Source of the DNA: Centroscyllium fabricii
Taxonomy: Eukaryota
Length of the DNA stretch: 64,000 nt
Assembly: GCA_051313645.2 (NCBI GenBank)
Contig: JBNRSN020000012.1
Location: forward strand, 143,530,001-143,594,000
Reading direction: 5' to 3'
This document shows positions 1-54,685 of this stretch, piece after piece; position 1 is the stretch's first letter, and every line of letters starts with the position of its first letter. The translations under genes were made by a program, and so were the position numbers. Under the pieces are notes generated by a model that did no database searches, had not been told where the DNA came from, and was given only the letters and a program-made list of their open reading frames with translations.

Positions 1-1130
1 ATACATATATCAGAATGCTGTTTATTGACTACAGCTCAGCATTCAACACTATCGTCCCCAGCAAGTTGTCTACCAAACTCCTCTCCCTCGGCCTGAACAC
101 CTCCCTCTGCAACTGGACCCTGGACTTCCTAACCAACAGACCACAGTCTGTGAATTTAGGCAACCTCACCTCCCCCCCCTTACCCTGAACACGGGGGCCC
201 CACAAGGCTCTGTGCTGAGCCCCCTCCTCTACTCCCTCTTCACCCACGACTGTGCGGTTGTCCACGGCTCCAACACGATCAGCAAGTTTGCGGACGACAC
301 CACGGTGGTTGGCCAGATCACCAACAACGATGAGTCAGCCTACAGGGATGAGATTCAGCGCCTTGTGGGATGGTGTGCCGATAACAACCTGGCAATGAAC
401 ACCAAGAAAACCAAGGAGATCATAGTGAACTTCCGGAAGACTAAAAGCAGAAGACACCCCCCCCATCTTCATCCAAGGGGCTGACGTGGAAAGGGTGTCC
501 AGCTTCAAGTTCCTCGGGGTCTACATCTCAGAAGACCTCTCCTGGTCACTAAACACCTCCTCTCTGATTAAGGCTGCCCAACAGCGCCTGTACTTCCTAA
601 GGAAGCTGAAAAAAGCCAAGCTGTCATCCGGCATCCTCACCAACTTCTACCGCTGCACAATCGAAAGCATACTGACAAGCTGCATCACAGTCTGGTATGG
701 AAACTGCACCATCTCGGACCGGATGGCCCTGCAGCGGGTAGTCAAAACTGCCCAACAAATCACCGGCACCCAGCTACCGTCAATCGAATACACCTACCTG
801 AAAACGTTGCCTACGGAGGTCTCTGAACATTATTAAAGACCTCACACACCCTAGCCACAGTCTGTTCGCCCCCCTGCCCTCCGGGAGACGCTACAGATCA
901 ATCCGCACCCGCACGACCAGATTCAAGAACAGCTTCTTCCCCAGGGCTGTCAACCTCCTGAACTCTAACAAAAAACTTCAGTATCTGCACATCTGAAATG
1001 TACTTTACTGTATGCAATTGTATGTAACTTATTTTCACTACTCTCGGGAGAGTCGAGTCTTCGTTTCGTTGTATTGTACTAGTACTCTGCAATGACATTG
1101 AAAATTGAATTGAATTGAAAATTGAATTGA
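1..1130 (+). mobile_element. Rex1/Babar-type non-LTR retrotransposon, 3' part (RT domain, frameshifted)
   Basis: Translates to [53 protein letters not shown] and YRCTIESILTSCITVWYG (ORFs 212-484, 486-836); ends in an (AATTG)n tail at ~1103-1130. Confidence 0.9.
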
Positions 1131-1134
1131 AAAG

Positions 1135-1880
1135 AAAAAGTTTGGAGTGTCTGAGGACCTTTAAAAGAGCAAGGATACAAATTTAGAATTGTTCAGAAAA
1201 TTATTAATGACTGCTGCATGTGCAAGAAGAGTTATTAAGATTGTAAAGAGACTAGAGAATAAAACATTGCAAGAGGCTGAAAGAATCAGCCTCGTCTCAG
1301 TCGTGAGTAGAAGACCGAGGGGAGAATATGATTCAAATGAATAAGGCCCAAGGATGTATAATAATAATTCCCACTTTATTGTTATTATACAATGTACAAG
1401 TACATGAACAATGAAATGTGATCTTGCAAGCTCCCAAGAGTCCAGCAAAGCCGCTGCGTCTGTGCGCGCTGCCATTCCATCTTTCCATCATTCCGACAAT
1501 CTTCAGCCAACCGCCCCTCCCCAGGGCTCCTTTCGTGACCTTCTGCACCTGGTATTCCCTGGTGGACACCCATCCAAGTACTAACCAGGCCTGGGCCTGC
1601 TTAGCTTCCAAGCCTTGCCAGTGACCCTGTCCCGAGTACCAGGAACAGGGCGAGGGCTAATAGTTTTGACACCAGATAGCAGGGGCCACAAGTCTAAGCT
1701 GAAAAGAGGTGGATTCAGGTGACATGTATGGGACCATCACTTCACTGAGAGGATGGTCAGCTTTTGCAACAGTTTAATGAGGGAAGTTGCATGGGCAAGT
1801 AGCCGAGATTGCTTCACGGTAAAAGTGCATAAGCATCTTGAAAAGAAGCAGATTCCCAGACACACCTGCTAGGACAGCAG
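1135..1880 (+). mobile_element. Degraded CR1 LINE 3' fragment, interrupted at ~1360-1657
   Basis: Decayed matches to CR1 C-terminal coding sequence (AGAAGACCGAGGGGAGAATATGATTCAA; GGGGCCACAAGTCTAAGCTG; CACTGAGAGGATGGTC) on both sides of the insert. Confidence 0.5.
1363..1657 (-). mobile_element. 5S rRNA-derived SINE (SINE3-like) with Rex1-like 3' tail
   Basis: Minus strand 1610-1539 reads TGGAAGCTAAGCAGGCCCAGGCCTGGTTAGTACTTGGATGGGTGTCCACCAGGGAATACCAGGTGC (3' half of 5S rRNA with box A and box C); tail 1373-1434 resembles the Rex1 tail at 58564-58629; possible TSD TAATA. Confidence 0.7.
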
Positions 1881-2389
1881 GAAGGTTGGGATTTGGGCCC
1901 AACATTCCTGCTAAGCTGCGTGGACACGCAGCGATCTGGAGGTCCTGCGCAAGCAGAATCCACCACCCGTCCTGGCCCCAAGCCAGTGACCCGGTGCCAA
2001 ATGCCAGGCAGGGGCAGGGAGATGCATAATCGGAGAAAGAGTGACACCCGCTTCACACCACCGGCTGCAATTTCAGGGCAGCGCCAGGAGACCTGCCGGA
2101 ATTGATGACCTTTCCCCGGGTAAAGGTTTCGGGTCTCTTCAGGCTCCCAGCAGGGCTCATTCCAGCCCACTGAGGGCTTAATGGACAAATTTCCAGAGGT
2201 AGTTGCTAGACAGGCCCCCTTGATGTGAGGGGGAGGATCTGCCAGTGGCACCCACCCCCCTCACCGCGGTGACATTTAAAGGGTCGCAGCAAACGGAGTG
2301 GAATCTCTGTATAACCCCCAAATTCCTGACCCCCTGGGGGAAAGTTAGGTTGTCTGCCTTCCCCAGCCCCCTGGAATTTCAGAATCTGT

Positions 2390-3192
2390 GGGGGGGATTT
2401 TTATGTCCCCGTGAGGCGGGGTTTTGGGTGGCCTGGCCGGCACAATAGCAGAAACGACAAGTCCCGCCCCTCCCCGCCTTATCCCTGCCGCTTTCTCATT
2501 TTCGCCCGCCCAGATTCCCCGCCCCGAAACCTTCCCACCGCCGACCGGTGGGGATGGGTTGTCACCTCGTTAAGGGCCCTTAATTGGCATCTTTAATGTC
2601 ATTTTAAGGGCCCTCAGCCATTTTGCCCTGTTTCCCGCCCTAATCCCGCCACCCTAAACCCCCAGCGGGAGCACAGCGCTAGTCATTACTGTTGGACTAT
2701 AACCTGGTGTTGTGTGACTTGTTGCATTTATTACTTTCTCCTTCAAGGTGTGAAGGACATGCTGCCAAAAGCTTGGCATGCCTCCAGCACCGTTCTGGCT
2801 GCAGCAGCAGCTCTGAGCAGAAACTGAGCAATCTCAGCTCTGAACATGTCCTCACAGCCGCTGCGAGCTGAGGGGGATTCTGAGCCCGCCCGCCCACCAG
2901 TCAGTCACCAGCACTTGGCCTTTCCCATTGGCTCCACTCAACTGTGATGTCACAGTGGAGTGTTTCCATGGGAACTGACAACAACTAGTGCTGGAACTGT
3001 CAATCAAACTGCTCGCAGCCCCACTGCAGCCCAACTCGATTGACATAATCACCTCCCGCAGCCGCCGACGGGGATTTAACAACCTAATTAAACTAAAATT
3101 GCATGGCCTTCCCAGCTGTTTGGGCGGGCGGGACCGGAAGCCGCCCAGACCAATCCCCGCCAGGTTCCTGCTCTTCCGGCAAAATCGCCCCC
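2390..3192. mobile_element. Non-autonomous PIF/Harbinger-type TIR element, nested in another GC-rich repeat (~1895-3280)
   Basis: TIR GGGGGGGATTTT / AAAATCGCCCCC; 3-bp TSD TGT; both ends homologous (reverse orientation) to 52380-53179. Confidence 0.75.
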
Positions 3193-3875
3193 TGTGTTTC
3201 TATGTTGCCCTCGGCTGTGAGAGACCGACACAATGGGAGCCGGTGCCTGAACGCCACTATAAAAGCAGCAAGTATTGCACAAGGCCAGTCTGCAGACCGA
3301 ATCTGGTGCAATCAATATAAGGAGGCGATACAGGAGACACGACTTTCTGTCTGGGGATTTGAAGGGATACAGTGCAACATACCTTTGCACAAAGAAAGCA
3401 AAAATCGTGCCAGTGACCTTCCAAAACAGATTTACAGAAATAATAAGAAGGAGGAAGGAATTTATGTCTTAAAATTCAATACAACTAAATCCATACAAAT
3501 CAAGCAAAAGGACCACAGTATAGACTCGGAATTTTCAATATTGCATGACCTGTGCTTTTGCCCAGCAATAGTTGAAAGGGGCAAAAAATAATAATGCACC
3601 CATCTTCTCTGATGATTCACACAGCTTGTGACATTAGAATTCTAGAGAAAGTTAGGTGGCAGCACAGCTTCTGCAGGAGGTCATTCATGGTTATCCACTA
3701 TTGTGACAATGGGATTGCTGGGATTACAACACTTAAGGTTTTAGGTTGGTGCAAAGTGAGTAAATGGAGCGACACTTTCTCCACCAGAGCATCGTACTCT
3801 GCTTCACTCTCGTCAGGTCAGACCTCAACTCCAGATTCAGCCGGAGTTTACACTACAAGTGCAGCACTGGTGCAA

Positions 3876-4210
3876 AAGAAAGACTTGCATTTCCACAGCG
3901 CCTTTCATAACCTTAGGATGCCCAAGTTCCCACAAACAGCAATGAAATAAATGATCAGATAATCTGTTTTTGGCGGTGCTGGTTGAGGGATTAGCCAGAA
4001 CATCGGGGAGAACTCCCCTGCACTTCTTCGAATAGTGCAATGGGGCAGACGGGACCACATTTGAAACATGGCACTTCCAACAGTGCAACACTCCCTCAGT
4101 ATTGCACCAGAGTGTCAGCTTATTTATGTGCTCAAATTGCTGCAATGGGGCTTGAACCTATGACCTTCTGACTCAGAATCGAGAGCGCCACCCACTGAGC
4201 CAAGGCTGAC
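3876..4210 (-). mobile_element. tRNA-derived Deu-type SINE (SacSINE1-like)
   Basis: Reverse complement of the 17846-18293 family: tRNA-like head (GAGTCAGAAGGTCATAGGTTCAAG) and GAAATGCAAGTCTTTC tail. Confidence 0.7.
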
Positions 4211-5194
4211 AAAGTGGAGCCATCTCCCGATGACCGCTTGGCTGCAGTATTAATACACTGGCATATCAGTTAACCTGATGCCACCACAACAAAACACAGT
4301 TCTCTCTCACTATATAATTTGGTCTTAAAGCATAACAAATCCCATCTGTAATGATGGTCTTTGGTCCTGCCTGTAGGTATCTTCTAGATGGCTGTTGTCC
4401 CAACACGTCGCTGAACCTGAATTGTTCATTTATCAAGTTGCAAAGTGAGTGCAGCGGGGACAAGCAAGGGCTTGGGTCATCATCTTTCTTGCATCAACAC
4501 AATCTCAGATCCAATGTTTATGCCAATTAGTCACTGTATGTAGATTAAATTAAACAAAATTGAATCAAATTAAATTAAATTACAACAAAGCTGTTGGTAA
4601 TGACTACCACTGAGAGTCCTCCAGCAGAACTGAATGGCCATGAAGGACTTAGCTCAGATCAGTAGCCACTGGAGCCAGTGCAGACACCACTATTTTGATC
4701 AATAACATGTTTCAAAGAACAAAAAGAAATACTATTTTGAACTCGTGGACTCTCATTATTATTTTTTTACAAATATTGAACATTCTTCTAATTCCTTTGG
4801 TCTCATAACAGGGACGCGCCTGAAGATTGCAGGTTCTTCAATGCGACGAGAGTGGGGCACACCCGCTTCCTCCTGGTGGGAAAGCCGAGGCAGCTTCACC
4901 ACTCGGGCCCCTGGTTAAAACTGCACCAGGGTTGGTCCCGATTTGCTTCATTTGTGAGGCTTCCACCCGCAAAAGCCCTGCAGGTTAATACCTGAACTGG
5001 TCGGGATCTGAGTGGGCAAGTTACTTGCTCATCTTTAACTGCCGGGCGGGTAGGGATAAGATTGACGCCAGATGTCAGCCGCGCAGTAACCCGCTCACCG
5101 GCTTTTACTGTGCAAGTCCTGCACATGTGCAGAAATTTAAAGGGACCGCACATTAAAAGAAACAGACCACGCAGAACAAAGCGCAGCTTCCAGG

Positions 5195-5545: not shown

Positions 5546-5691
5546 TGTGCACTTTATAGCAGGGATCAATGAAGAGTGAATAAGGAGGGGAATCTCATAC
5601 TGGTCTTCCTCAATGTCAAAACATGGGCACTGAAGGAAATGTTTATCCCCCAGCATAGGCTAGATATCAAACCTAGCACTGTGTTACCTTA

Positions 5692-5895
5692 AATAAAAAC
5701 AGAAAATGCTGGGAACACTCAGCAGGTCAGGCAGCATCTGTGGAGGGAGAAACAGAGCTCACGTTTCAGACAATGACCCTTTCATCGACCTGAAATGTTA
5801 ACTCTGTTCCTCTCGCCACAGATGCCGCCTGACCTACACATTGTTTCCAGCATTTTCTATTTTATTTCAGATTTCCAGCATCCGCAGTATTTTAC
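5692..5895. mobile_element. Penelope-like element terminal remnant forming an inverted repeat
   Basis: AAAATGCTGG..CAGCATCTGTGG..ACGTTTCAG followed by its reverse complement; same motif flanks the GIY-YIG-bearing copy at 47385-47998. Confidence 0.7.
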
Positions 5896-5915
5896 TTTTG
5901 TAATGGTATCATCTT

Positions 5916-6302
5916 GCGGCACGGTGGCACAGTGGTTAGCACTGTTGTCTCACAGCACTGGAGACCCGGGTTCAAATCCAGCCTCGGGTACTATCTGTGT
6001 GGAGTTTGCACATTCTCCCCGTGTCTGCGTGGGTTTCCTCCGGGTGCTCCGGTTTCCTCCCACAGTCCAAAGATGTGCGGGTTAGATAAATTGACCCTTA
6101 GTGTTAGGGGGATTGAATATGTGGGGTTACGGGGATAGGGTGGGATATGTGTCGATGCAGGCTCGATAGGGATATGGGGAGAGGGCAGGGGCGGGATACT
6201 GGGTTTGGATGATCAGCCATGATCTCATTGAATGGCGGAGCAGGCTCGAAGGGCCGAATGGCCTACTCCTGCTCCTAGTTTCTGTGTTTCTATGTTTCTA
6301 TG
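5916..6302 (+). mobile_element. HE1 (V-SINE family) SINE, tail type A
   Basis: tRNA-like A/B boxes (GGTGGCACAGTGGTTAGC, GGTTCAAATCC), V-core (GGGTTTCCTCCGGGTGCTCCGGTTTCCTCCCACA), CR1-type tail ending (TTTCTATG)n. Confidence 0.9.
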
Positions 6303-13750: not shown

Positions 13751-15052
13751 CTAGTTCACCCTGACATTCTTCGCCACCCATCAGTTCACCCTGGCATTCT
13801 CCACTTCCCATCAGTTCACCCTGGCATTCTTCACCACCCATCAGTTCACCCTGATATTCTTCACTTCCCATCAGTTCACCCTGGCATTCTTCGCCACCCA
13901 TCAGTTCACCCTGGCATTCTTCACCACCCATCAGTTCACCCTGGCATTCTTCACCACTCATCAGTTCACCCTGACATTCTTCACCACCCATCAGCTCACC
14001 CGGGCACTCTTCACCACCGATCAGTTCACCCTGGCACACTTCACCACCCATCAGTTCACCGTGGCACACTTCACCACCCATCAGTTCACCCTGGCATTCT
14101 TCACTTCCATCAGTTCACCCTGACATTCTTCACCACCCATCAGTTCACCCTGGCACTCTTCACCACCCATCAGTTCACCCTGGCACTCTTCTCCACCTAT
14201 CAGATCACCCTGCCACTCTTCACCACCGATCAGTTCAACCTAGCACACTTCACCACCCATCAGTTCACCCTGGCACTCTTCACCACCGATCAGTTCACCC
14301 TGGCACTCTTCACCACCGATCAGTTCACCCTGGCACTCTTCACCACCGATCAGTTCACCCTGGCACTCTTCTCCACCTATCAGATCGCCCTGGCACTCTT
14401 CACCACCCATCAGTACACCCTGGCACTCTTCACCACCCCATACACCCTGGCACTCTTCACCACCCATCAGTTCACCCTGGCACATTTCACCAGCCCCATC
14501 TGTTCACCCTGGCATTCTTCACTTCCCATCAGTTCACCCTGGCACTCTTCACCCCCCATCTGTTCACCCTGGCACTCTTTACCCCCCATCTGTTCACCCT
14601 GGCACATTTCACCACCCATCAGTTCACGCTGCCACTCTTCACCCCCATCTGTTCACCCTGGCACATTTCACCACCCATCAGTTCACCCTGCCACTCTTCA
14701 CCCCCCATCTGTTCACCCTGGCACATTTCACCACCCATCAGTTCACCCTGCCACTCTTCACCCCCCATCAGTTCACCCTGGCACTCTTCACCTCCCTCCA
14801 GAGCACCCTGGCACTCTTCACCACCCTGTACACCCTGGCACTCATCACCACTTATCTGTTCACCCTGGCACTCTTCACCACCCATCAGCTCACCCTGGCA
14901 CTCATCAACACCCATCAGTTCATCCTGGCACTCTTCACCACCCATTAGTTCACTCTGGCACTCTTCACCACTTATCTGTTCACCCTGGCGCTCTTCACCC
15001 CCCATCAGCTCACCCTGGCACTCTTCACCCATCAGTTCACCCTGGCACTCTT
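13751..15052. repeat. 30-bp minisatellite (consensus TCAGTTCACCCTGGCACTCTTCACCACCCA), roughly 43 units
   Basis: Direct tandem periodicity; explains the 10-aa repeats in ORF 13685-15064. Confidence 0.97.
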
Positions 15053-17845: not shown

Positions 17846-18293
17846 GCTGGTGGCTCATTGGCAACACTCTCACCTCGGAGTCAGAAGGTTGTGGATTCAA
17901 GTCTCACTCAAGAGACTTGAGCATATAATCCATAAGCCAGTGCAGTGCTGAGGGAGTGTGGCACTGTCGTAGGTGTTGTCTTTCGGATGAGACGTTAAAC
18001 TGAATCAACGTCTTCCGTCTCGGGTGGACGTAAAAGGTCCCATTGCACTATTTCAAAGAAGGGCAAGGGAGTTCACCCCAGTGTCCTGCCCAATATTTAT
18101 CCTTCACCTAACATCACTGAAACAGATTATTATCGCATTGCTGTTTGTGGGAGCTTGCGGTGCGCAAGTTGGCTGCCGCGTTTCCTACATTACAACAGTG
18201 ACTACACTTCAAAAGGTGCTAAATTGGCTGTAAAGCACTGTGGGACGTTCCGGGGCTGTGAAAGACACGATATAAAACCAAGTCTTTCTTTCT
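17846..18293 (+). mobile_element. tRNA-derived Deu-type SINE (SacSINE1-like), near full length
   Basis: tRNA-like head, Deu-like core (GATGAGACGTTAAAC..GGTGGACGTAAAAGGTCCCATTGCACTATT..GTGTCCTG..GCTGTTTGTGGGAGCTTG), L2-like tail. Confidence 0.8.
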
Positions 18294-18920: not shown

Positions 18921-20305
18921 ATACAAGTCAGTGAAAGGTGTATAAACACTGCATAGCTTCACGCTGAGAGATTCCCCAACTATCTGATTTATTCCCACCC
19001 ATCCATACCATTGGCTGTAATCCAGGTCTGATCTCACATGCCGGCTGAGACAGCCAACTCGAAGAGACGATTTAATGGGGAAATGTATCGAAAGCTTTAT
19101 TTGAGCAAAGAGAAGAACCAGAAGAGTTGTACTGCCTGTTAATTGACCGAGTGATGTGGTTTGACACAACTTCCATTGATGTACCTGCGCCAGGTACTGA
19201 TAAACAGATGGAAACAAAATTACCCAAATACCTTTCGATAATGATAGGGCCATTTAAAATAATTCATAGTCCTTTAATCACATTCTATCCCAGAGCCAGT
19301 AATGGGTCAACTATTTTCACTCAATTGTCTGCGCTCCTTCAACCCATGCTGATTGTTGATCTAGATTTGGTAGAGTGGCCTCTGGATAAAGCGCGGAATG
19401 AATGCAACAAATATGATATCGCCTGTATATCGGGCACAGATAAGAAGAATATCTTGCTTGCCGATCACAAAGTCGTGTAGATAATAGCAGGTTTCGGGGA
19501 AGGAAGGAGGAGAAAGAGCAAGGAGAGGGAAATCAAGGTGAGAGTGCAAGTCCCAGCCTTCATTTTGCAACACTATTTTTGAACAGTTTCCAAGAGGAGA
19601 TTGTCAAAGACAACATGATTGTTGAAAACTGAATTTTTATCAAACCTGTCAATATTGCAATAGTGTGGACTGGAATGCCAATAGACATCTAATAACATGA
19701 GCTAGGTATATCTATAAGCAGAGATCTTTGTGGTGTGGACTAGCACCACAGTGCTAATATTGTACCAAATTTCTACTATTAAAACAGAAAGATAAGCATT
19801 TATTCTGTAGTATATTACAAGCAAGCTAACTTTTCTGATTCCCTCACTGTGGCTGCCATTTTTGGACACAGCAGGTAGAGTACAGATGAGGGTTTGCTCC
19901 CACTTGTAGGTTGACCCTATTTTCCATATAGCAGGTAGATCTATACTCAAAAACAAAATAATCTCAGGAGGGTGGGTAGCGTATTGAATCCTTTGTGATC
20001 TGTGCTTAGATCCATGTCAAATACACATTGAAACAGCAGTCATAAATTTGATCATTAGTTTTTGTACATTCTTCTTCAATTACCTCCCCCTCCCAACTTT
20101 TCTTTCTGGCTCTCTTTCAGATAGTCACCACAGGACCACAAAGGCTTCAAACATTCTATTTAGAACGATTTTCCCAAAACTAACAACCCTTCATTGCATT
20201 TTTAAATCTGGAACTAATGGATCTCGCGTGGCATTTCTCATGTCTAGACAGGCACTACACGCTCTCTTTCTCTTACCAGGGTTTCCCGTCTATATGTCAC
20301 AGGAA

Positions 20306-20698
20306 GGGTGGCACGGTGGCGCAGTGGTTAGCACTGTTGTCTCACAGCACTGGAGACCCGGGTTCAAATCCAGCCTCGGGTACTATCTGTGTGGAGTTTG
20401 CACATTCTCCCCGTGTCTGCGTGGGTTTCCTCCGGGTGCTCCGGTTTCCTCCCACAGTCCAAAGATGTGCGGCTTAGGTTGATTGGCCAGGATAAACTGA
20501 CCCTTAGTGTTAGGGGGATTGAATATGTGGGGTTACGGGGATAGGGTGGGATATGTGTCGGTGCAGGCTCGATAGGGATATGGGGAGAGGGCAGGGACAG
20601 GGTACTGGGTTTGGATGATCAGCCATGATCTCATTGAATGGCGGAGCGGGCCGAAGGGCCGACTCCTGCTTCTAGTTTCTATGTTTCTATGTTTCTAT
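20306..20698 (+). mobile_element. HE1 SINE, tail type A
   Basis: Near-identical to 5916-6302. Confidence 0.9.
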
Positions 20699-24047: not shown

Positions 24048-24225
24048 GAAATCTGATTATCTGGTCAATTATTCCATTGCTGTTTGTGGATCCCTGCTGT
24101 GTGCAAATTTAGTGTTTACCTACATTAAAACAGCGATGATACACCAATAGTCCTTCACTGACTGTAAAGGGCTTTGGGACATCTTGAGAACGTGAACAGC
24201 ACTATATAAATGCAAGCTCTTTCTT
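24048..24225 (+). mobile_element. Deu-type SINE 3' part
   Basis: TTGCTGTTTGTGG..CTACATT..GCTTTGGGAC..ACTATATAAATGCAAG. Confidence 0.7.
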
Positions 24226-24999
24226 TAAATAGCTGCCGTGTGCATACATGAAACAAATCCACTCGTGTATGAACGGCCACAGGTGTGATACGCAAACAAG
24301 CGCAAAATGGTTCTTCGAGCATGAATCGAACTTCCAATGAGTCGACTCATTCAGGTACATCGCATTTAAATGCATCAACAGCGGACTTGTTTTTTTTAAT
24401 CAAAGTGATCAGGCGGTCACCACCAGAAACCAGAGTGCCCGGTTCCAAACCAGGCTGGTGACCACCTTCCTGCCACTTGGTGAGTTGGACCTTTGAACAT
24501 GCTCAAACTAATCTATTTTCAAAGCTCCCTTCCCAAAAATACCCAGTGACTCGAAATTTAACTGGAGGAAATGAATCGTAGAATGAAACGGAACAAAATT
24601 CAGCTACAGGCAGGCAGTTAGGCAATTAGGATATGGGGAAAACTGTGTACAGGCCACAAAGTATCAGGTGCACAAATGGAGACAGACACAGAGCTGAGGG
24701 TGGTGGAGCGGAAGCTAAATCCCATCTACCAGCTGCTGGGTTGCTTTGTTTGTGAGGCGGTTAAGGTGCTTTTATATTACACTAGTGACTAGTGCAGCCG
24801 ATGACAACTGCACACAGTTCTCCTGCTGTCAGCTGAACTCCTAAATGTAAATGATCCAACCTGCAGGGAAACAATGGCATTGTAGCTCCACCAAACAGGT
24901 GGTCTATGAGCTTGCTATCGCACTGAGCTCCTCTTGGCGCACAAGCTAAACGTGGGCAGCTTGTTCCACGTAGCTGCACGCCTCTGCAACTGGGTCTAA

Positions 25000-27406: not shown

Positions 27407-27719
27407 GGCACGGTGGCATAGTGGTTAGCACTGTTGCCTCACAGCTCTGGGGGCCCGGGTTCAAATCCGGCCTCCGGTACTATCTGTGTGGAGTTTGCAC
27501 ATTCTCCCCGTGTCTGCGTCGGTTTCCTCCGGGTGCTCCGGTTTCCTCCCACAGTCCAAAGATGTGCGGGTTAGGTTGATTGGCCATGATAAATTGACGC
27601 TTAGTATTAGGGGGATTAAATGTGTGGGGTTGCGGGGATAGGGTGGGATATGTGTCGGTGCAGGCTCGATGGGCCGAAATGGCCTCTATCTGCACTGTAG
27701 GGATTCTATGATTCTATGA
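27407..27719 (+). mobile_element. HE1 SINE, tail type B
   Basis: HE1 head and core, then GCTCGATGGGCCGAAATGGCCTCTATCTGCACTGTAGGGATTCTATGATTCTATG; ATGAAGGCA repeated at both junctions. Confidence 0.9.
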
Positions 27720-30881: not shown

Positions 30882-33846
30882 AGGCAACTCATTATCAGTA
30901 CCCCGCAGAACCTGCATTCAGTGCAGGAAGAGATTTCATGACGTTCTGCACACTGGAAAAGTGAGGATGGAACTCCCATTACCCTCAATCTGATCCCCAA
31001 TGGCTTTCTTCACCAGCACTCAGCTTCAGCAATCTCTTCCTCCACAACCCACTTGACACTCACATCCATGCACCCTTACCCATTCCCTCTCTCTCTATGC
31101 TCACATTCACATAACTATTCCACCATGCAGCCCTCACACTCCTTATCACTCTGATGCTTTGAATACAACTGACAACACATATGGAATGCCCTTGGTCTTG
31201 CCACCTCACTCCATCTTTGTCTCCTTCTCAGTATCCAGACAGGTACAGCAGTGGAGAGTCCTAGTCAGATGGCACAGAACTCTGCCAGCTTGGCTCAGCT
31301 GCATGTCGACCCTCTGCCTCTGGGTCCATCCATAAGATGGGCAGTGCTGGAACTCCAGGAACAGATGCAGGAGTGGGTTGGTGAGCAGCAGCCTGGCGCC
31401 GCTGCTGCTGCTGCTGTTGTTGTTCCTGGTACTGCTGATGCCGCGGCTGGTGTGGGAGCTCATCTAATGCTCAGAAAAGCAAACCTAAATAGCTTCCATG
31501 CTTCTGGCATGTGCCTCCACTGAGGAAGCACTGAGTGAAGGTGCCAAGAGGGGTTTCCCAGGAGTTCACACTGGAGATGTGTGTGAGGCTCCAACCTACC
31601 ACAAGTGTGATTAGGACTTCTAAATGTTGCCCCAAACCAGAAAAAATAAGGTCTTGCCACCTGCATATGATGGCAGGTTCAATGTCAGACCTTATGATGG
31701 AGCTGCTGCTGAGAGTCAGCAATTCGATTGTGTTCCCACTAGGTTTCAGCGGCGGGGTTTGCAGCTGGCGGCATTTGTGTGGGGAACATCTAAAAATCAC
31801 TAAGGGCCCTTAAAATGGCATTACAGATGGCAATTTATGAGCCTAACGAACATCCCCGCCGGCGGGAAAGATTCGGGGCGGGGCGACACGGCAGCGGGAA
31901 ATCGCAAAGCGGTGGGGATCCGTCGGGGTGGTTGGGGGGGGGGATGATCGGGACCCCCGGTTTAGCAATTTTACGGCCCGGCCCGCCCCGTCGAAAAGCC
32001 CGCCTCAAGGCTCAATGAAAATTTACCCCTATGTCAACATTTAATAGATTCGACAGGTGGTTAAAGGAAAGGGGAATAAAGGAATATGGGAATAGGGCAG
32101 GTATATGTAATCAGGACTAGTGCTGGAGTGAAGGATAAACCTGACGGGGACTGGTTGGGTCGAACGGCTTGTTTTCTTGTAGGAATTCTATAATTATGAC
32201 CATGATATAACATGGTTAACATGGACCAGTCAGATGATCAGCACAGGCCATTCTCCTTGCTGCTCCAACACCAGTCTCCAACTGCCCACAGTCCTTTTAA
32301 CCTCTCTCCCAGCCTCAAACTATAACAACTTCACCAGTTCCTCCCTGTCCCAGCAAAACCGTGGCACCCAATCCGATCTCCTGCCCACTGCATTTCAGCT
32401 AATCTCTCAACCGCCAGCATTCCCGTTTCTCTGCCTTCCCAAGCTCAATTTTCACCCAGGCCTTGGCCCCGCTCCTTGCCCTCCCAAATCCTCTTCTGGC
32501 TGCACAGCTACGAGCCACGACAGGCCCAGTAGCGAGGCCTGAGCCTCGGAAAAGCCGAGATTCAACAGCAGGTCCTGGACCTGGGTGAGAAACAACTAAC
32601 AGTTTTGTGTTGAAAGTTTTGTTACCACTGGTAACAAAACTAACATTACATGACATTGAAAAACACCTTATTCTGAAAAGATGCTTATTTTCCTTTACAA
32701 AAACACCATTAAATGGCACAGATTTAAAAAAATGAATATATAACAATGGAACTTTCCAGTACATAGTAAGTATAATTATTTATGACAAAACATCATCAGG
32801 CAATCTACTTTTTAAATGTAGTGAGAGTGGCAGTTATGCAGATGATAGAGACAGACACAATAACTGTGACATAGAGACTGACAAAAAGATTTGGAGAATC
32901 ACGGTGACAAAGGAAAGCGTGCAAGGCAGTGATACAGAAAAGGCAGAAGCCACACGGTACAAGAGAGAAGAGGACGGGAAGAGTTAGAGTGAGAGACAAG
33001 CAGAGAGTTACAGGAAGAGTTCAGTTCTCGGACTCCTTTATTGAAAAAAAATTCCCCATTGGCAACTGAAGCAGAATCTGATTGCCCTGCCGATGACCCT
33101 AGTTGTAATTTTCCCACTGCAACATGACTGTTAATTCACACCAGCCAATAGTTATGAATTTTTAAAGATAGAACCACTCTGCTTCAGTTAACTTAATGTT
33201 TTCAGCGCCTGGTCCATCATGGGTGAGAAACAACACAGCTGATGACCACCATGCTAGATTTAGGCTGCTGGGCCAAGAAACCCAAGTAAATAACTCTCTC
33301 TCTAACACAAAACACTACATTCTGTCGATTTAAAGAGACGCAAACCTCTTCGCTGACATGAATGAAAATCAATTCTATTCAATTCCAAATAGCCTTCAAT
33401 GCATTATTTTCCTTTTATCCCCCTGCTCTTTTATTTTCTCCCCTCGAAGGTCACGATTCCCTTGCAGGGGCGGGCTTCCATGGGCTCCAATCGCCATCGG
33501 TCACCTTGCCCGCGTGGCTGTTAGTCACAAGTGAGCCTTGGCAGCCAGTGTTGGTGTGTTATTTGGCCATGGGGGCATCACAGCTGACCCATCATCCTGT
33601 CTGCGCCTTGCCCCGCATCCGTGCAGGCGCACTTAAGAGCAGCAGTGCCTGGATGCCAATCAGGAGCAAAAAAAAACCAGCCAATCTCCATTGTTATCCT
33701 GGCTCAGGTCACCTGACGGGATTTTCTCGCTACAGGCAGGGTCTTGGGAGAGCCGCTCTCCTGAATTCACGTTATATCATGCCAACCACCTCCCTACAAA
33801 CCGGTGACATGGAGAAGTGCTAGTCATCACACTTTGCAGTGATATT

Positions 33847-34633: not shown

Positions 34634-35519
34634 GGGGGAATTTTTAAAAAGCTGTGGGAAGCTGGCGGGTTTTGGGCGGGTCAGTTTTCTGTCCTGCCCG
34701 CCCAAGGACCTGGGAGGCCTGAGCGAATTTGGCTCAAGTGGCCAATTAAATCCCCGCCGATCTGTCGGGCTTCCGATACACACTAATGGGCGGGAACATA
34801 GCCCTTTACATTCACAGTTTGAGTTGGGCGGGCTGTTGATTGACAGGCCTGAGTAGTAAGAACTCACTGAGCTTGATTGACAGATCTGAAGTGTTGCCTT
34901 TGTTTCTATGTTTACATAGTCTCTGTGCGTCAGACTATGAAAGGAACACTTGAAACCACAAAACAAACAGTTGAAGTGAGTCACTGTTTGTTTGTGGTTT
35001 CAATGGAATGTAAACAGAAACTGGTCCCCTGGGTGATTGATAGCTGGGCTCACAGACATCTCTGTTGAATATGAGCGATTTGAAGATGAATGATTTCAAT
35101 CTTTTGGGGCTCTGAAGTTTCTCACCCTTGTGTGGCAGCTGCAACCCCAGCATGGTGGAGGCTAGCAAGCTGCTGTGTGAGTGCTGTGCCCATGCCTTGA
35201 AGGTGGTAGACACCCAGCCGCCTGGGTTCCCACCACCTTTTTCACGGTGGTGTTTTCACCAGGCGGGTTTTGGGTGGGAAGAGAGTTAAAATAGCTGAGG
35301 GCCCTTAAAATAGGATTAGCCATCCAATTAAGGGCCCTCAACAACCTCAATCTTTATCCCCACCGGCGGCGGGCAGGAAACATGCGGGGCGGCAAAACCC
35401 GCCCGACGAAAATCCCAAATGGGCGGAGATCCGGCGGGGTGCCTTCCCGCCCGACGGATTGGAAATTTAGTAACTGACCCGCCAGAAACCCGCACTCAGG
35501 GACCTCCTAAAATCCCACC
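34634..35519. mobile_element. Non-autonomous Harbinger-type TIR element (same broad family as 2390-3192)
   Basis: GGGGGAATTTTT / AAAATCCCACC termini; possible TSD CAT; shared GGGCCCTTAAAAT..AATTAAGGGCCC block. Confidence 0.6.
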
Positions 35520-37970: not shown

Positions 37971-38619
37971 AACATAAAATCCGGAGGTAACTTTGAGTGA
38001 AGCGGATGATATGAACTACTTTAAAAACCATTTCCCCAATTTTTCTTGTCGTCTTCACCGCTTCTGCAGGCTGGCATAGTTGCATGGGTGTGACAACTCT
38101 CTGCCACCTCCCTCGGATACCCAATCTTCATCTGAAAGACGGACCGCGAAGGTCCACACAGTGTACTCGCAATGATGCGGTTACAGATTAGAAGGTGGGC
38201 ACTTTTGTTTGTGTTCAACGTATAACTGATAACAACTTGAAAACTTTCAGCTTTCTGAAAGAAGCTCATGGCTTCTTGAAAAGTAAATGTCACATCTCAA
38301 CTTTTCCTCTCCCCAAGTTCCATTCCATCCTCCCCCGAGATGCTGACTGTTACAGTGCGGATCCATAGCCACTCTCGAGTACCTCCCTCTAAAATGTCGT
38401 CTTTCATACCTTGAGCCTTGCCAATTAAGTACGAGCTGGCTATTCGCCAATGTAAGGCATCACAGCGAGCCACATTGTCTTCGTACACGACACACGAGGG
38501 GTTAACGGATCGCTGTCAGCAGTTCACCTCTGGCTGATGTTCTTCTCGTTAGCCCGGGGCACTGATTGTCGACTGTCCCCCCGTGTCCCCTCACAGGGCT
38601 GTGCTGACTAACACAAGGA

Positions 38620-40610
38620 GAAACATAGAAGATAGGAGCAGGAGTAGGCCATTCGGCCCCTCGAGCCTGCTCCGCCATTCAATGAGATCATGACTGATCA
38701 TCCAAATTCAGTACCCTATTCCTGCCTTCTCTCCGTATCCCTTGATCACTTTAGCCTTAAGAAATATATCTAACTCCTTCTTGAATATATTTAATGAATT
38801 GGCCTCTACTGCCTTCTGTGGTAGAGAATTTCACAGGTTCACCCCTCTCTGGTTGAAGAAATTCCTCCTCATCTCTGTCCTAAATGGCTTACTCCTTTAT
38901 CCTTAGACTTTACCCTCCTGGTTCTGGACTCCCCGACCATCGGGAACATCTTTCCTGCATCTGGACTGTCTAGTCCTTTTAGAATTTTATAAGTTTCAAT
39001 GAGATCCCCTCTTATTCCTCTAAACTTCAGTGAGTATAAACCCAATCGACCCAATCTCTCCTCATACGTCATTCCTGCCATCCCAGGTATCAGCCTGGTG
39101 AATCTTCGCTGCATTAGCCCCATGGCAAGAACATCCTTCCTCAGATAAGGCGACCAAAACTGCACACAATACTCAAGGTGTGGTCTCACCAAGGCCCTGT
39201 ACAGCTGCAGCAAGACACCCTTGTTCCTGTACTCAAGCCCTCTTGCTACGAAGGCCAACATACCATTTGCCTCCTTAACCATCTGCTGCACCTGCATGCT
39301 TACCTTCAGCGACTGATGCACACGGACACCTAGGTCTCGTTGCACTTCCCCTTCTCCCAATCTATTTCCATTCAGATAATAATCTGCCTTCCTGTTTTTG
39401 ACACCAAAGTGGATAACGTCGCATTTATCCACGTTATATAGCATCTGCCATGCTTCTGCCCAATCACCCAACCTGTCCAAATCATATTGGAGTTTCTCGG
39501 CATCCTCCTCACAGCACACACGCCCACCCAGCTTTGTGTCATCTGCAAACTTGGAGATATTACATCTAGTTCCCTCGTCTAGATCATTTATATATATTGT
39601 GAATAGCTGGGGTCCTAGCACCAATCCCTGTGGTACCCCACTCGGAAAGAGACCCGTTTATTTCAACTCTTTGCTTTCTGTCTGCCAACCAGTTCTCTAT
39701 CCAAGTCAGTACCTTGCCCCCAATCCCATGTGCCTTAGCTTTACACGTTAATCTCTTATGCGGGACCTTATTGAATGCCTTTTGAAAGTCCAAATACACC
39801 ACATCCACTGGTTCTCCCTTACCTATTTTACCAGTTACATCCTCAAAAAATTCCAGTAGATTAGTCAAGCTCGAAGTATTCTTTGTAAATCCATGTTGAC
39901 TTTGTCTGATCCGGTCACGGTTTTCCAAGTGCTCTGCTATTACATCTTTTATAATGGACTCTAGCATTTTCCGCACTACCGATGTCAGGCTGTAATTCCC
40001 TATTTTCTCTCGACCACCTTTTTTGAATAGTGGGGTAACATTAGCTACCCTCCAATCCATGGGTACTGTTCCAGAGTCTATCAAATTTTGGAAGATGACC
40101 AGCAATGCATCTACTATTTCTAGGGCCACTTCCTTAAGTACCCTAGGATGTAGATTATCAGGCCCTGGGGATTTATCGGCCTTCAATCCCGTCAATTTCC
40201 CTAACACCATTTCCCTACAAATACTGATTTCTTTCAATTCCTCCCCCTCATTAGACCCTATGTTCCTCGACATCTCTGGGAAGTTATTTGTGTCCTCCTT
40301 TGTGAAGACAGAACCAAAGTCTTCCATTGGTCTGCCATTTCTTTGTTCCCCATTATAAATTCCCCTGATTCTGACTGCAAGGGACCTATGCTTGACTTCA
40401 CCAATCATTTCCCCTCCCCACATATCTGTAGAAGCTTTTACAGTCAGTTTTTATGTTCCTTGCAAGCTTACTCTCACACTATATTTTCCGCCTCTTAATT
40501 CATCCCTTTGTCCTCCTTTGCTGAATCCTAAACTGCTCCCAATTCTCAGGGTTACTGCTTTTTCTGGCCAATTTATATGTCCTCTCCTTGGATCTTATGC
40601 TATCCCTAAT
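38620..40610 (-). mobile_element. CR1 (HER1-like) LINE, 5'-truncated, frameshifted RT, type A tail
   Basis: ORFs 39584-40423 (KSPGPD, DFQKAFNKV) and 38869-39624 (SKFADDTK, VRPHLEYCVQFW). Confidence 0.95.
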
Positions 40611-41771
40611 TTGCAATCCCTAATAAAGAGAATCGTAAAGTCATCAAGAATCTTGCAGCAAATAACGATGAGTTCAGAGATGTCTACACACAGAGCGACA
40701 TCTGGGAAATAATTGCATCTCTGCCTCAACATCTTTGAACTTCACACAAGAACATCTTCCTAATCTAAACTCGTTTCCACATGTAACAGATGGCAAAACT
40801 GCAAGCAATGGCAAGGTGGTAAATATGGCCTCATAAATGGAGCCATAGATGATGACTTGGTTCCTTGCTGGTGAAGTGTTCCCCCCCCTCCCCCTGTTGT
40901 TGATAATGCTCAAAGTTGATTTACAAGGAGATCAGACGGCCCCCAATGACATTTTGCATGGTAGTGACACCATAAAGATTTGTTATGGGGCATGAGTGCT
41001 CTAATTACTCACATGCATGACGATGCATCTTCTGGTAGCTGTATTACCCTCCATATCCATTACTGGATAGGTTCAGGAGGCAGTTAGCTTAGAGACAAAA
41101 TTGAAGGGATTGGATCAGAAGATGGATAGGTAGATTGGAGTTATCAAAAATAGGCAGAATTGTTAGGCCGAGTTGACCTTTCCCAATTCCCAAGTGTTCC
41201 TAATTCAACAGAGCCCAGACGTCAAAGTTGGATAGTTCTGGTCTCTGCATTTAGCCAACTGAGCCTATCGGGAAGCAGATTTTTGTTAAATACATTGACA
41301 GATCCACCCCCTAATCCTAGTCAGTTGGAAATCCCATTCTCCCCCTCCCAGAACAGTGGGTCAGTCCACAGATTTTGCAGAATAATGCACTGGCAGCCTC
41401 TAAAACGCAGCCATAATCAAAATGGCAGCACCGTAGGAGAGAGTTAGAATGTGCGACATTCCTCTTGTGATTAATAAGGAAGGAGGTGTCACTCCATTTC
41501 AAGGGAAGGTAAGCACACTGGCATCACCTGGCTTAACTGCTAATGGTGGCATCTGAGGTGAATCAACAGCTCTGGCGACTGTCTCCTCTGAAAGGAAGAT
41601 TGTGGTTGTGAAATCTAGTGGCGTCAAGGGAGGAATTAAAGGGATTAAGCAATAGATTCATCCGCAAACATTTTTATTGTATTGCATGGATATATAATTA
41701 GTGTTTCAACAGGGTGTGGGCACAGGTTTTTCACAGGCCTCATTTATACAAAAAAATCAAAAGCTCAGACA

Positions 41772-42168
41772 GGGCGGCACGGTGGCATAGTGGTTAGCAC
41801 TGTTGCCTCACAGCACTGGAGACCCGGGTTCAAATCCAGCCTCGGGTACTATCTGTGTGGAGTTTGCACATTCTCCCCGTGTCTGCGTGGGTTTCCTCCG
41901 GGTGCTCCGGTTTCCTCCCACAGTCCAAAGATGTGCGGGTTAGGTTGATTGGCCAGGATAAATTGACCCTTAGTGTAAGGGGGATTGAATATGTGGGGTT
42001 ACGGGGATAGGGTGGGATGTGTGTCGGTGCAGGCTCGATAGGGATCAAGGGATATGGGGACAGGGCGGGTTACTGGGTTTGGAGGATCAGCCATGATCTC
42101 ATTGAATGGCGGAGCATGCTCGAAGGGCCGAATGGCCTACTCCTGCTCCTATCTTCTATGTTTCTATG
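41772..42168 (+). mobile_element. HE1 SINE, tail type A
   Basis: Near-identical to the other HE1 copies. Confidence 0.9.
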
Positions 42169-43290
42169 TGGAAAAAGTTACAAAAAAAAGCAAGCGCCTA
42201 AACTCTCAGGTGATTTAAATGGGATGCAATGCGGCTCTGTGATAACTAATTCCTCTCAGACAAGCAGCAGCTGTTTACCAGCTATAGCATCCAATCCACC
42301 GAGGCTGGGCTCCATCAGCTCTCCAGTTAGAATTAAATTCTCAGGTGTGCTTATGTCTAAATTTAAAAATAAATCAGCAAAGCACACACTAACTTTCCAT
42401 CCAAACCTTACATCGAGGCATGGCCCTTTTGAAAGCTCGTTAACTCTTCAGAAGCACTCTTCCTACAAATATATAGGAGAGATACCTGCCGCATTAGAGG
42501 GCGCCAGTTTTAAGGGTTTAGATGATGTCAAACCAGATTCCTCGTCAAACTCGATTCCTTCCCTTTCATGCGTTTTTTTTTTAAACATGATAATTGACCC
42601 ACATTACTCGCTTAGGGTTCATTGTCTTTCTGCATTGTACGCCCCGGGTACGAATGTTTACAATGTCGAACAGCTTCTGGGATAGCCATGTGCATCACAG
42701 TGCAGATGTTCCAGCTGTGGCAGCAACAGACAAATATGGGATTTCAGCCACTGGGAATAATCAACACTGGAATACAGGAAAAAGTCAGGGAGATGAGAAA
42801 AGGCCTTTCAGCCCATTCCAGCCAATAAATGCTGGCCTTGCCAGCGACGCCCACATCCCAGGAACAAATTAAATAAAAACCCTATTCCTTCTGTACTCAA
42901 GATTCTCCCACCACAGCATCCGGCTGTACTCTAAACAATCCCACTACTTCCGTCTGCAAACATTTATTCCTCTTAAACTAAATACATTCTTCCTTGTTTT
43001 CAAATTCGAAACATTGCTCCACAAATCAAACATGCTCTTCTCACCGGACATCCCAAAGTGCAAAGTCATTAGCAAGGAGACACCATCTTTCTTACTTGGA
43101 CTTCAGCCATTAGCGAATCTTGAGTAAATAAAAAAACCTCATGCTTGAGCATGTAAGATTATCATGGATGAGTTGATTTTTAGAATACTTGTTTTAATAT
43201 CTTATAATCATTAATATCTTATAATCCTCAATATCTTATAATCATCAGTAATGGAGTTATAATCGCGTGTAAGAATTAAATGTAGAAGTC

Positions 43291-44739: not shown

Positions 44740-44960
44740 TGTCAGCCATGGCTCAGTTGGTAGCTCGCTCGCCTGAGTCAGAAGGTCATGGGTTCCAGCT
44801 CCACTTCACGAGACTTGAGCGTATAATCTCAGCCGACACTCCCAGTGCAGCACTGTCGGAGGTGGCATCTTTCAGATGATACGTTGAATCCAGGCCCCGC
44901 CTGCCCTCTTCAGGTGGATGTAAAAGACCGCACGGCACTATTTGAAGAGGAGCAGGGGAG
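44740..44960 (+). mobile_element. Deu-type SINE 5' part
   Basis: GGCTCAGTTGGTAGC..GAGTCAGAAGGTCATGGGTTC..GGTGGATGTAAAAGACC. Confidence 0.75.
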
Positions 44961-45442
44961 CCTCAGCCATCACGTGCACATTGGGAACAACACAGGCTCA
45001 GCGGGTGAGCATTTTTGCAGCTTGCGCAGATACGTGGTCTGCTGCGACAATGCTTTTGCAAACATTGCCATTGTGTTCTTGCAATTTTATTTTAAAGTTC
45101 TTTCTCATTACCATTTTGTTCCGATGCCAGCCTTTGAAGAGAAAGGCCATACTGTGCAACTGAAATACGGGGAGACTGGCACCGACACTGTCCAATACAA
45201 CAGTAATGCCCCCCGCTGGGTTTTAGAAAAGATCCCCTATAACAAGTCAGTTTATGGGGCGAATCGAGACTGCCTTTGTAGCCAAAATTCTAGCGAAATG
45301 GTTGTCATAGTTTCAGAGAGAGAAAGTGAGTGCAAAATAACAACAGAAAATGCTGGAAAAACTCAGCAGGCCAGGCAACATCCGTGGATAGAGAAATAGA
45401 GTCAACATTTTGGGTCGAAACCCTTCTACAGAACTACAGGGG

Positions 45443-46829: not shown

Positions 46830-47165
46830 CAAAAACAAAATACTGCAGATGCTGGAAATATATGATAAAAAAATGCTGGAAACACTCAGCCGGTGAGGAA
46901 GCATTTGTGGAGAGAGAAAGAGAGTTAACATTTCGGGTCTGATGACCTTTCGGCAGCACTGGAAGATTCTAGAGATGAACTTCTTCTAAGCAAATACAGG
47001 GCCTGGGAAAGGGGGTGGGAAGAGAGAAAATACAAAGCCCGTGATAGGGTGGAGGACAAGAGTGATTAAATAGCAAAAGGGATGATGGTGTGAGGCAAAA
47101 GGAGGTGATAATGAGACAAGTGCAGAAACAAAAGATGGATCCAGAAGAGGTGTGAATCATTAAAG
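46830..47165 (-). mobile_element. Penelope-like 3' terminal fragment
   Basis: AAATACTGCAGATGCTGGAAAT..AAATGCTGGAAACACTCAGC. Confidence 0.65.
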
Positions 47166-47384: not shown

Positions 47385-47998
47385 AACAAAATACTGCAGA
47401 TGCTGGAAATCCAAAACAACAACAGAAAATGCTGGAAAAACTCAGCAGTTCAGGCAGCATCAGTGGAGAGAAACAGAGTCAACGTTTCGGGAAGTTCCCT
47501 TTATCGAGACTGATGAAACAGCCGAGAAGGATAGCAGAGGGCTGAGAGAACACAAAGGGACGAGAAGAGACAATGAGAGTTATTCAGAACGAGACGAGGT
47601 GAAATAGGACAGAAGACAGCTCTAGATTAGGTGTGAAATGCGCTGGCTGAATAGGAGACAGCTGCCGTGTGGGAAAGAGAAAGAAGGAGGGGGGGGGGGG
47701 TAGGGGACAGCCGAGGCAAAGGTGTGGATAATGTAAAGAAAAGGTAAAAATGTTAAGGGTTATGATCTGAAATTGTTGAACTCGATATTGAGTCCGGACG
47801 GCTGTAAAGTGCCTAATCGGAAAATGAGGTGCTGTTCCTGGAGCTTACGCTGAGCTTCGGTGGAACAATGTAATAGGCCAAAGACAGAGATCAGAGAGGG
47901 TGTGAAGCGGAGAATTAAAGTGACAGGCGACTGGAAGCTCAGGATCACCCTTGCGGACTGAACGGAGGTGTTCCGCAAAGTGGTCACCCAATCTGCCT
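47385..47998 (-). mobile_element. Penelope-like element 3' part with GIY-YIG endonuclease remnant
   Basis: RLGDHFAEHLRSVRKGDPELPVACHFNS and RKLQEQHLIFRLGTLQPSGLNIEF. Confidence 0.85.
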
Positions 47999-51876: not shown

Positions 51877-51898
51877 AATAAATATTTAGAAATATTTA

Positions 51899-52217
51899 GG
51901 GCGGCACGGTGGCATAGTGGTTAGCACTGTTGCCTCACAGCACTAGGGGCCCGGGTTCAAATCCGGCCTCAGGTGACTATCGGTGTGGAGTTTGCACATT
52001 CTCCCCGTGTCTGTGTGGGTTTTCTCCGGGTGCTCCGGTTTCCTCCCACAGTCCAAAGATGTGCGGGTTAGGTTGATTAGCCAGGATAAATTGACCCTTA
52101 GTGTTAGGGGGATTAAATATGTGGGGTTACGGGGATAGGGTGGGATATGTGTCGGTGCCGGCTCGATGGGCCGAAATGGCCTCTATCTGCACTGTAGGGA
52201 TTCTATGATTCTATGAT
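51899..52217 (+). mobile_element. HE1 SINE, tail type B
   Basis: Same tail as 27407-27719. Confidence 0.9.
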
Positions 52218-52379
52218 TAATCTAATTTTGATACACTCTGATAGAGTTGCACCATGATGGTCCTAATGATGGTCCCAATAACATGGGCAGCACAGACACC
52301 AGACTGAAGGGATTCGAACAGGGGGCGGTGAGCAATGTGAGCACGGAGTTGGGTGGCAATGAGACAGTCCAGAAGCTTA

Positions 52380-53179
52380 GGAGGGGATTTTTCCTGGAGG
52401 TGCGGGAACCTGGTGGGAATTGGTCAGGGCGGGTTCCTGTCCCGCCCGGCCAAGGGCCTGGGAAGCTGATGCTATTTTACTTTAATTGCTCAATTAAATT
52501 CCCACGTGCGGGGTGCCCCTGGTAATTGCCGCAGTCAAGTCGGCAATTACGGAGCACAAACGGGAGTCTAGGAGGTTGTCAGACAGCTGCGGGGACTCTG
52601 TGTTTACAGTTCCCATGGAAATACTCCACTGTGATATCACAGTAGAGTATAACCAATGGGACAGGCCAAGTGCTCTGAGTGACAGGTGGGTGGGCTGCAA
52701 ATCTTTGACAGCTAGGGGCTGGCTGTCAGTGGAGCTGTCAAGGTAAGATTTCTAAGTTTTTCCCCACAGCTGGTCTTCACCCAAGGGAATGACTTACACC
52801 TCCAGGGTGTTGAAGGCCTGGGAAGCATTTTGCTCTAGGTCCTTAAACACCTTGAAGGAGAAAGTTAGCAAGACCACTGTGCACCTGCTGGGTTTCACCA
52901 GCGGGGTTTTAGGATGGCAGGGTTTGGTTGGGAAGGGGTTGAAAATTGCTAAGGTCCCTTAAAATGGCATTACAGATGCCAATTAAAGGCCCCTAATGAG
53001 CTTAACAACCATCCCCGCTGGCCACCGGCAGGAAAGATTTGGGGCGGGGAGGCAGGGCGGCGGAAAATGAAAAAGCGGCGGGGATCTGGCAGGGCGGGGG
53101 GTCGGGACCCACCAGTTCCGCTATTTTTCCGTCCGACCCGCCGAAAACCCCGCCTCATGGGGACATGAAAATTTTGGCC
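52380..53179. mobile_element. Non-autonomous PIF/Harbinger element
   Basis: Termini GGAGGGGATTTT / AAAATTTTGGCC; TSD TTA; homologous to 2390-3192. Confidence 0.8.
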
Positions 53180-54235: not shown

Positions 54236-54685
54236 ATTCCGATTAGGCACTTTACAGCCCTCCGGACTCAATATCAAGTTCAACAATTTCAGATCATAAC
54301 TACGGCCCCCATTATATTTTTACTTATTTTTATCCACACCTTTTATTTGCCCCCCGCCTCTTTTTTTTTCTCTCTCTCTCTCTCCCACATGGCAGCAACC
54401 TCCCATTCTGCCAGTGCATTTCACGCCTAATCTATAGCTGTATTCTGTCCACAGCCCCATCACAATTTCGTCTCATTTTGAATACCTCTTAATGGCTTTT
54501 CTCTTTGGTTTTCTCTTCCCTTTTGTTCTCTCCCAGCTCCCCCGGCCTTCTCACCTGTTTCATGTCCTTGCTTTAGTCTTGACAAAGGGTTCTAACCTGA
54601 AACGTCGACTCTATTTCTCTCTCGACAGATGCTGCCTGGCCGGCTGAGTTTTTCCAGCATTTTCTGTTGTTATCCCAGATTTCAA
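54236..54685 (+). mobile_element. Penelope-like 3' part
   Basis: Reverse complement of ~47400-47825 (FRLGTLQPSGLNIKFNNF). Confidence 0.8.

Follow-up and report, generated by a model that had tools for sequence, protein, structure and literature searches.

The window (the whole 64-kb stretch of DNA that was analysed) is vertebrate DNA with many repeats. Besides CR1 fragments, it contains two fragments of Rex1/Babar, and a tRNA-type SINE, which we take to be HE1-like, is present five times. An old CR1 copy on the plus strand is interrupted by a unit of ~295 nt on the minus strand (positions 1363-1657). With the CR1 ORF at 29210 as reference, the flank to the left of this unit (1166-1358) corresponds to residues 398-431 and aligns also with the 3' ends of other CR1 copies; the flank to the right (1663-1856) corresponds to residues 460-512. 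The E-values of these flank matches are weak; the flanks are collinear across the unit, and when joined they outscore either flank alone against seven of seven CR1 copies, in agreement with the preliminary description of a unit inserted into an older CR1. The TAATA target-site duplication proposed there is present at both edges as a candidate (1359-1363 on the left, with an alternative register at 1362-1366, and 1658-1662 on the right, both on the plus strand). Because the left copy overlaps the (AAT)n tail, the 3' edge of the unit is uncertain by 1-4 nt; priming of reverse transcription by the tail repeat would be expected to produce such a merging of TAATA with the (AAT)n end. CR1 alignment scores stay level over 1600-1663, and close to the junction some 20-30 nt of CR1 are unaccounted for. 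The host CR1 is too decayed for the 5' edge to be fixed from its alignment.

Read on the minus strand from G1657, the unit consists, in order, of a 47-nt non-5S head (1611-1657; element positions 1-47), a 5S rRNA-derived promoter region comprising the internal control region (1538-1610; element positions 48-120), a unique purine-rich body (1436-1537), a Rex1/Babar-type 3' tail (1372-1435), and a short linker with the start of a terminal (ATT)n repeat (1364-1371), which runs into the target duplication. An AATAAA motif lies at element position +278 (1375-1380), and the tail ends just past it. The definition of a SINE given in the relevant part of the SINEBase paper (PMC3531059) asks for a non-tandem element of <1 kb, at least 60% identity over at least 60 nt to 5S, tRNA, or 7SL RNA, at least 100 interspersed copies per genome, and distinctness from an RNA pseudogene by virtue of additional body sequence or of diagnostic changes common to the copies. 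The present element is 295 nt long, i.e. within the size limit, and no tandem array is found at the locus.

The 5S rRNA family of Rfam (RF00001) matches positions 1537-1664 with 37.8 bits, slightly below its gathering score of 38, and with E-values of 5.2e-6 on the 1 kb searched and 3.3e-4 on the whole window. This is the sole 5S-like match in the window at E-values up to 0.5, and none is found there at the gathering score. The first 47 nt of the unit align poorly to the 5S model and are partly skipped. Good alignment starts only from about model position 48, where 50 of 65 consensus positions agree (counted by eye from the alignment), a value above the SINEBase identity threshold. Box A (AGCTAAGC; 1599-1606) begins at element position +52 and the box C core (TGGATGGG; 1569-1576, starting at 1576) at +82, both on the minus strand; they are thus 30 nt apart with no insertion or deletion between them relative to the Rfam model, which is the spacing of a type 1 promoter. 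The Rfam match and the box spacing support the claim that the internal control region of 5S has been retained, and the positions previously given for the element start (G1657) and box A (+52) were reproduced. A functional 5S rRNA gene is not indicated, since the 5' domain is unalignable, the score is below the gathering score, T4 is absent, and the copy is single. No oligo-T terminator is found 3' of the 5S region and no T4 occurs within the element, the nearest lying 99 nt downstream. The 5S part contains no CpG, while the body retains seven (o/e 0.89), compared with an o/e of 0.57-0.68 in the five HE1-like copies, which are mutually 94-98% identical. These counts are small and weakly suggest that the 5S part had drifted in the source element before the present insertion.

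The body is 102 nt long, GC-rich (59%), and purine-rich. It had been called unique, and indeed no match was found among the window sequences tested, including the Deu-type and V-type SINE copies and the UTRs and ORFs of both Rex1 copies (p 0.06-0.97 for the latter). In the comparison for a Deu domain, the body did not match three SacSINE1-like copies (p 0.35-0.85), for which the Deu label is our assumption. In that for a V domain and tRNA head, the element did not match two HE1-like copies, its head being of the 5S type. The body end may resemble Rex1 5' ends, and a more elaborate scheme can be formulated in which the element belongs to a SINE3 family of sharks or rays that has yet to be described. 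In such a family, a hairpin module of matching length would have been captured in place of the entire 5S 5' domain, and the 5' end of a Rex1 LINE would have given rise to the body. This scheme appears rather doubtful. A word-index search for the body as a Rex1 5' end was negative, and comparison of the body with 101 named Rex1-like proteins (of 123, with 22 unnamed proteins excluded) gave spurious short matches only, none of the 15 N-termini inspected clearly reaching the element 5' end. If the scheme were true, only promoter spacing would matter, and the element would be the first bipartite Rex1-derived SINE; bipartite LINE derivatives are limited to RTE, Ingi, Vingi, and R2 in the pertinent passages of PMC5786205.

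The two Rex1/Babar copies in the window are copy A (29-1138, plus strand), which runs off the window start and contains RVT_1 and PF09004 domains, and the 5'-truncated copy B (58545-59140, minus strand), which contains PF09004. The last 80 nt of the element align to the end of copy B (58563-58642) with 44 of 66 columns identical, and to a second Rex1 3' end (1023-1102), which had previously been overlooked, with 48 of 75 columns identical. None of 5000 shuffles reached the score in either case. The four tail motifs reported to occur in order in 58564-58629 were found in that order. Among 6340 window segments scored against the tail, the top two scores belong to the two Rex1 ends, and six tails of CR1, HE1-like, and SacSINE1-like copies gave p-values of 0.19-0.90. 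In a blind scan of the whole window, the single best tail score has by itself a p-value of only about 0.06 (shuffled tails); the evidence therefore lies in both top ranks being Rex1 ends. A stem-loop is predicted in the tail (z -1.8), and a conserved fold across the element tail and the two Rex1 ends was not supported (consensus of -1.8 kcal/mol from three sequences only).

Since the identity of the tail to the two Rex1 ends is 64-67% and their terminal repeats differ from the (ATT)n of the element, the partner is apparently a Rex1 family other than these two, as judged from a comparison set formed by the LINEs of the 64-kb window with its two Rex1 families. The modest identity, the unlike terminal repeats, and the restriction to window LINEs would also suit a genuine 5S SINE with a different partner, such as L2, CR1, or another LINE with a similar AT-rich end. 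This explanation is improbable, because the two Rex1 ends are alike only weakly (score of 57) and yet both match the tail (scores of 120 and 110), and because the CR1, HE1-like, and SacSINE1-like tails do not match it. The protein sequence of copy B is 61-74% identical to 120 proteins among the matches listed, mostly teleost proteins with RT and PF09004 domains, and no chondrichthyan name appears among these 120. High coverage of Rex1 in rays and Rex1 transfers between rays and teleosts are described in the relevant part of PMC13343379, with which the teleost-like character of copy B accords.

The pieces described above are short and one locus was seen, so that a decayed 5S pseudogene fragment might have come to lie by chance beside a separately inserted, unrelated Rex1 3' fragment. 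Such a juxtaposition is very improbable, as the pieces are arranged on the same strand and in canonical order, a single TAATA pair encloses the whole unit with CR1 resuming on both sides, and the 5S-body junction contains neither poly(A) nor a microsatellite. We consider it likely, with a probability of about 0.7, that positions 1363-1657 hold a single retroposed SINE copy, that this SINE belongs to the 5S rRNA-derived SINE3 class, and that a Rex1/Babar-type LINE mobilised it. The preliminary description had proposed a 5S-promoter SINE mobilised by Rex1 and possibly undescribed, and this is still the best reading, each module having passed a test; the novelty is smaller than was proposed. The element probably represents a new family of the SINE3 class, a family status that we infer from one copy.

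With respect to copy number, no second copy of the element was detected within the 64-kb window by blastn, Smith-Waterman, or Rfam scans, whereas five HE1-like SINEs are present there. This disparity weakens the 5S SINE reading, as do the overlap of the target duplication with the microsatellite and the 20-30 nt of CR1 that are missing. Relative to the SINEBase definition, one copy in 64 kb compares with at least 100 interspersed copies per genome. Of the two features that may separate a SINE from an RNA pseudogene, a single copy can show only extra sequence, and a body and tail are present here. One frame is open for 105 codons through the whole element (1342-1656, minus strand). A phmmer search with this 105-aa frame against 1.84 billion proteins, which is insensitive for non-coding DNA, yielded three matches, all confined to the 5S part (query positions 17-43) and so of no use for tracing the element itself, and the open frame is regarded as due to chance since it has no protein relative beyond that part. 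Word-index searches of the open frames of the element found no relative, and a scan of bacterial and archaeal genomes gave 92 pattern matches, none of which was confirmed; both are likewise insensitive for non-coding DNA.

The non-5S head contains the hairpin noted in the preliminary description (9-10 bp; z -1.96; p 0.012-0.044 over three lengths). The fold is only modestly above chance, with 17 of 672 GC-matched 47-mers from the window folding as well; the hairpin is present though unremarkable as a fold, and the replaced head is possibly no family trait. A segment homologous to the head only lies ~325 nt away in the same orientation (1978-2019, minus strand; 33 of 44 columns identical). It was also recovered by blastn of 1000-2000 without preset limits, in which 1617-1656 matched 1982-2019, and it is the best match to the head in the window, its score being reached in none of 1500 whole-window shuffles. 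Four of 393 GC-matched local comparisons scored as high, all within repeats already found by blastn. The homology stops at the edges of the head and extends neither into the 5S part (p 0.32) nor past 1657 (p 0.52), and this termination supports 1657 as a module edge. The head was also tested as a CR1 remnant, for which the CR1 alignment scores were flat.

In the part of PMC10886601 that treats SINE3 heads, the promoter is described as their conserved portion and the sequence upstream of box A as divergent. Given this divergence and the homology to the nearby segment, the head may be specific to the present copy and not a family trait. The odds are about even that the 47-nt head belongs to the SINE family, perhaps as a module related to a repeat that lies nearby by chance. 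Local addition or duplication of the head at the present copy, with one of the two segments copied from the other, is given a chance slightly below even. As the head and its neighbour share only 75-81% identity, such copying would be an old event, and an old local event fits poorly with a body that retains seven CpGs.

The head homologue also bears on the possibility that the unit is a one-off chimeric retrocopy without a family. Here, the Rex1 RT would have begun on a Rex1-derived RNA, the body and tail corresponding to the 3' UTR of a Rex1 family absent from the sample or to a non-autonomous derivative. It would then have switched to cellular 5S RNA and stopped near 5S position 48, and about 45 nt copied from a DNA segment at a distance of 325 nt would have been joined to the 5' end. 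The single copy is in line with this scenario, as is the fact that the homology to 1978-2019, found without presupposed limits, covers exactly the non-5S part. The combined length of the body and tail (175 nt) is also near that of the Rex1 UTRs in the window (about 135-150 nt). These UTRs are AT-rich, however, and unlike the body; the placing of box A at +52 by filler DNA would be a coincidence, and the body CpGs have been kept despite the age implied by the 75-81% identity. On balance, we regard a one-off chimera as unlikely.

Two further readings of the head and its homologue were considered and rejected. One, prompted by a single 15-nt inverted repeat, was an inverted or direct copy of the 3' half of 5S (p 0.29 and 0.31; duplex p 0.09). 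The other took 1907-2019 as an older copy of the whole element, for which the whole alignment was borderline and driven by the head (p 0.009-0.04), while the anchored 5S part and the body gave p-values of 0.32 and 0.72, respectively. A GC-rich segment (1856-2385), bounded by the CR1 end on one side and the following repeat on the other, contains the head homologue and a 15-nt inverted repeat at 1876-1912; no clear second copy of this segment was found within the window.

For the 5S SINE reading, the promoter, the tail similarity, and the insertion geometry can be seen in the sequence, and a route of mobilisation may be proposed from established SINE and 5S biology. TFIIIA, TFIIIC, and TFIIIB would recruit Pol III to start at G1657, some 50 nt 5' of box A, and the transcript would read through the body and tail to a downstream T-run. 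The Rex1 endonuclease-RT would bind the tail, and the (AUU)n end would anneal at the nicked TAATA site and prime reverse transcription, so that copies would be inserted at sites resembling the terminal repeat. Transcription, protein recognition, and multiplicity are inferred from this general biology, and Pol III transcription from the 5S internal promoter combined with tail recognition by Rex1 and target-primed insertion is the probable mechanism.

RSg-1 is presumably a LINE of the Rex1/Babar clade, a membership for which no confirmation was found in the portions of the literature and supplements searched. OS-SINE1, a DeuSINE of salmon and trout, combines a 5S head with an RSg-1 tail (tables in PMC3747384 and the PMC3472496 supplement; the tail is given again in passages of PMC5135761 and PMC3272025) and hence resembles the element in joining a 5S head to a LINE-derived tail. 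It is set apart by its description as a DeuSINE, the Deu domain measuring about 330 bp in vertebrates according to a passage of PMC4824008, whereas the body of the element has 102 nt and does not match the Deu-type copies in the window. More generally, members of the SINE3 class, such as zebrafish SINE3-1, AmnSINE1, CoeSINE5, SINE-1_Pmo, Ped-1, HaSE3, and PxSE4/5, share with the element a type 1 promoter (A, IE, and C), a body, and a LINE tail. Their published partners, as given in the sections concerned, are CR1/L2, RTE, I, and RSg-1 (PMC3747384, PMC5786205, and PMC7245038), whereas the tail of the element is of the Rex1 type. A 5S head with an RTE tail is found in CoeSINE5, SINE-1_Pmo, HaSE3, and Ped-1 (parts of PMC5786205, PMC3747384, and the PMC3472496 supplement). 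The premise that 5S-headed SINEs have CR1/L2-type tails was therefore too narrow, since RTE, I, and RSg-1 tails have been published. The statement in Kojima 2020 (PMC7245038, in the section concerned) that the SINE3 families of vertebrates have their partners in the CR1 clade counts against a precedent for a Rex1 partner.

A Rex1 tail is reported for SINE2-5_NV of the sea anemone, which derives it from Rex1-24_NV (entries in PMC3747384 and the PMC3472496 supplement), but this SINE has a tRNA head, and its printed tail looks different by eye. From the same host group, HE1 is listed for sharks and rays (a table entry in PMC3747384), so that the HE1-like copies in the window suggest an elasmobranch source; HE1, SacSINE1, and CmiSINE have tRNA heads with CR1 (HER1) or L2 tails (portions of PMC3747384 and PMC5499810); the HE1-like and SacSINE1-like copies in the window are unlike the element in head, body, and tail. 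Ajax retains only the promoter part of 5S inside a mobile element (PMC10886601, same part as above). Ajax and Cassandra TRIMs are LTR elements, however; the present element lacks paired LTRs, and its 3' end is a LINE-type tail with a microsatellite. No 5S SINE family of sharks or rays was found in the published papers searched, and none appears in the portions covered of PMC4824008, PMC5499810, PMC6274825, PMC7599744, and PMC8010984. It is possible, rather than probable, that the family has already been catalogued in Repbase or Dfam.

If the element proves to be multi-copy, it would mean that 5S-promoter SINEs arose independently in cartilaginous fishes, for which the literature covered gives tRNA SINEs only. 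It would also be one of few SINEs partnered by Rex1/Babar, offering a route to defining which features of the Rex1 3' end are recognised, and would provide insertion markers for shark and ray phylogeny. In practical terms, it would be a source of false 5S matches in 5S gene annotation. The standing view of SINEs is unchanged, as the exchange of heads and tails is well documented.

Several other repeats were recorded in the window. The five HE1-like copies (5916-6295, 20305-20692, 41771-42169, 27407-27719, and 51898-52216, all on the plus strand) are 94-98% identical in their first 250 nt. The first three are longer by ~100-130 nt at the 3' side, and the additional stretch ends in the manner of the CR1 at 38619-38770; the other two stop sooner and have a different CR1-type tail. 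These two 3' forms appear to reflect the gain or exchange of a tail within a single family. Older SINE copies at 17851-18290, 44749-44960, 3923-4211, and 24049-24226 are presumably SacSINE1/Deu-like, and one of them has a 10-nt motif in common with the beginning of the element tail, a match that is not significant. A GC-rich repeat family of ~800 nt (2397-3201, 52371-53172, 31711-32024, and 34650-35441), with about 68-74% identity and internal short inverted repeats, is possibly a non-autonomous DNA transposon. A 30-bp minisatellite with 43.6 copies occupies 13753-15052 and accounts for the long spurious open frames found there. Another repeat family, which we take to be Penelope-like, is found as inverted pairs (5691-5900, 45335-45425, 46830-46945, 47385-47822, and 54237-54683), and the inverted pair at 5712-5846 gives a hairpin-driven MIR8670 match far below the gathering score, which is probably spurious. 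Finally, 60326-63300 (minus strand) contains broken LTR retrotransposon-like frames, Gypsy-like by eye, with zinc-knuckle, protease, RT/RNase H, and integrase-like segments.
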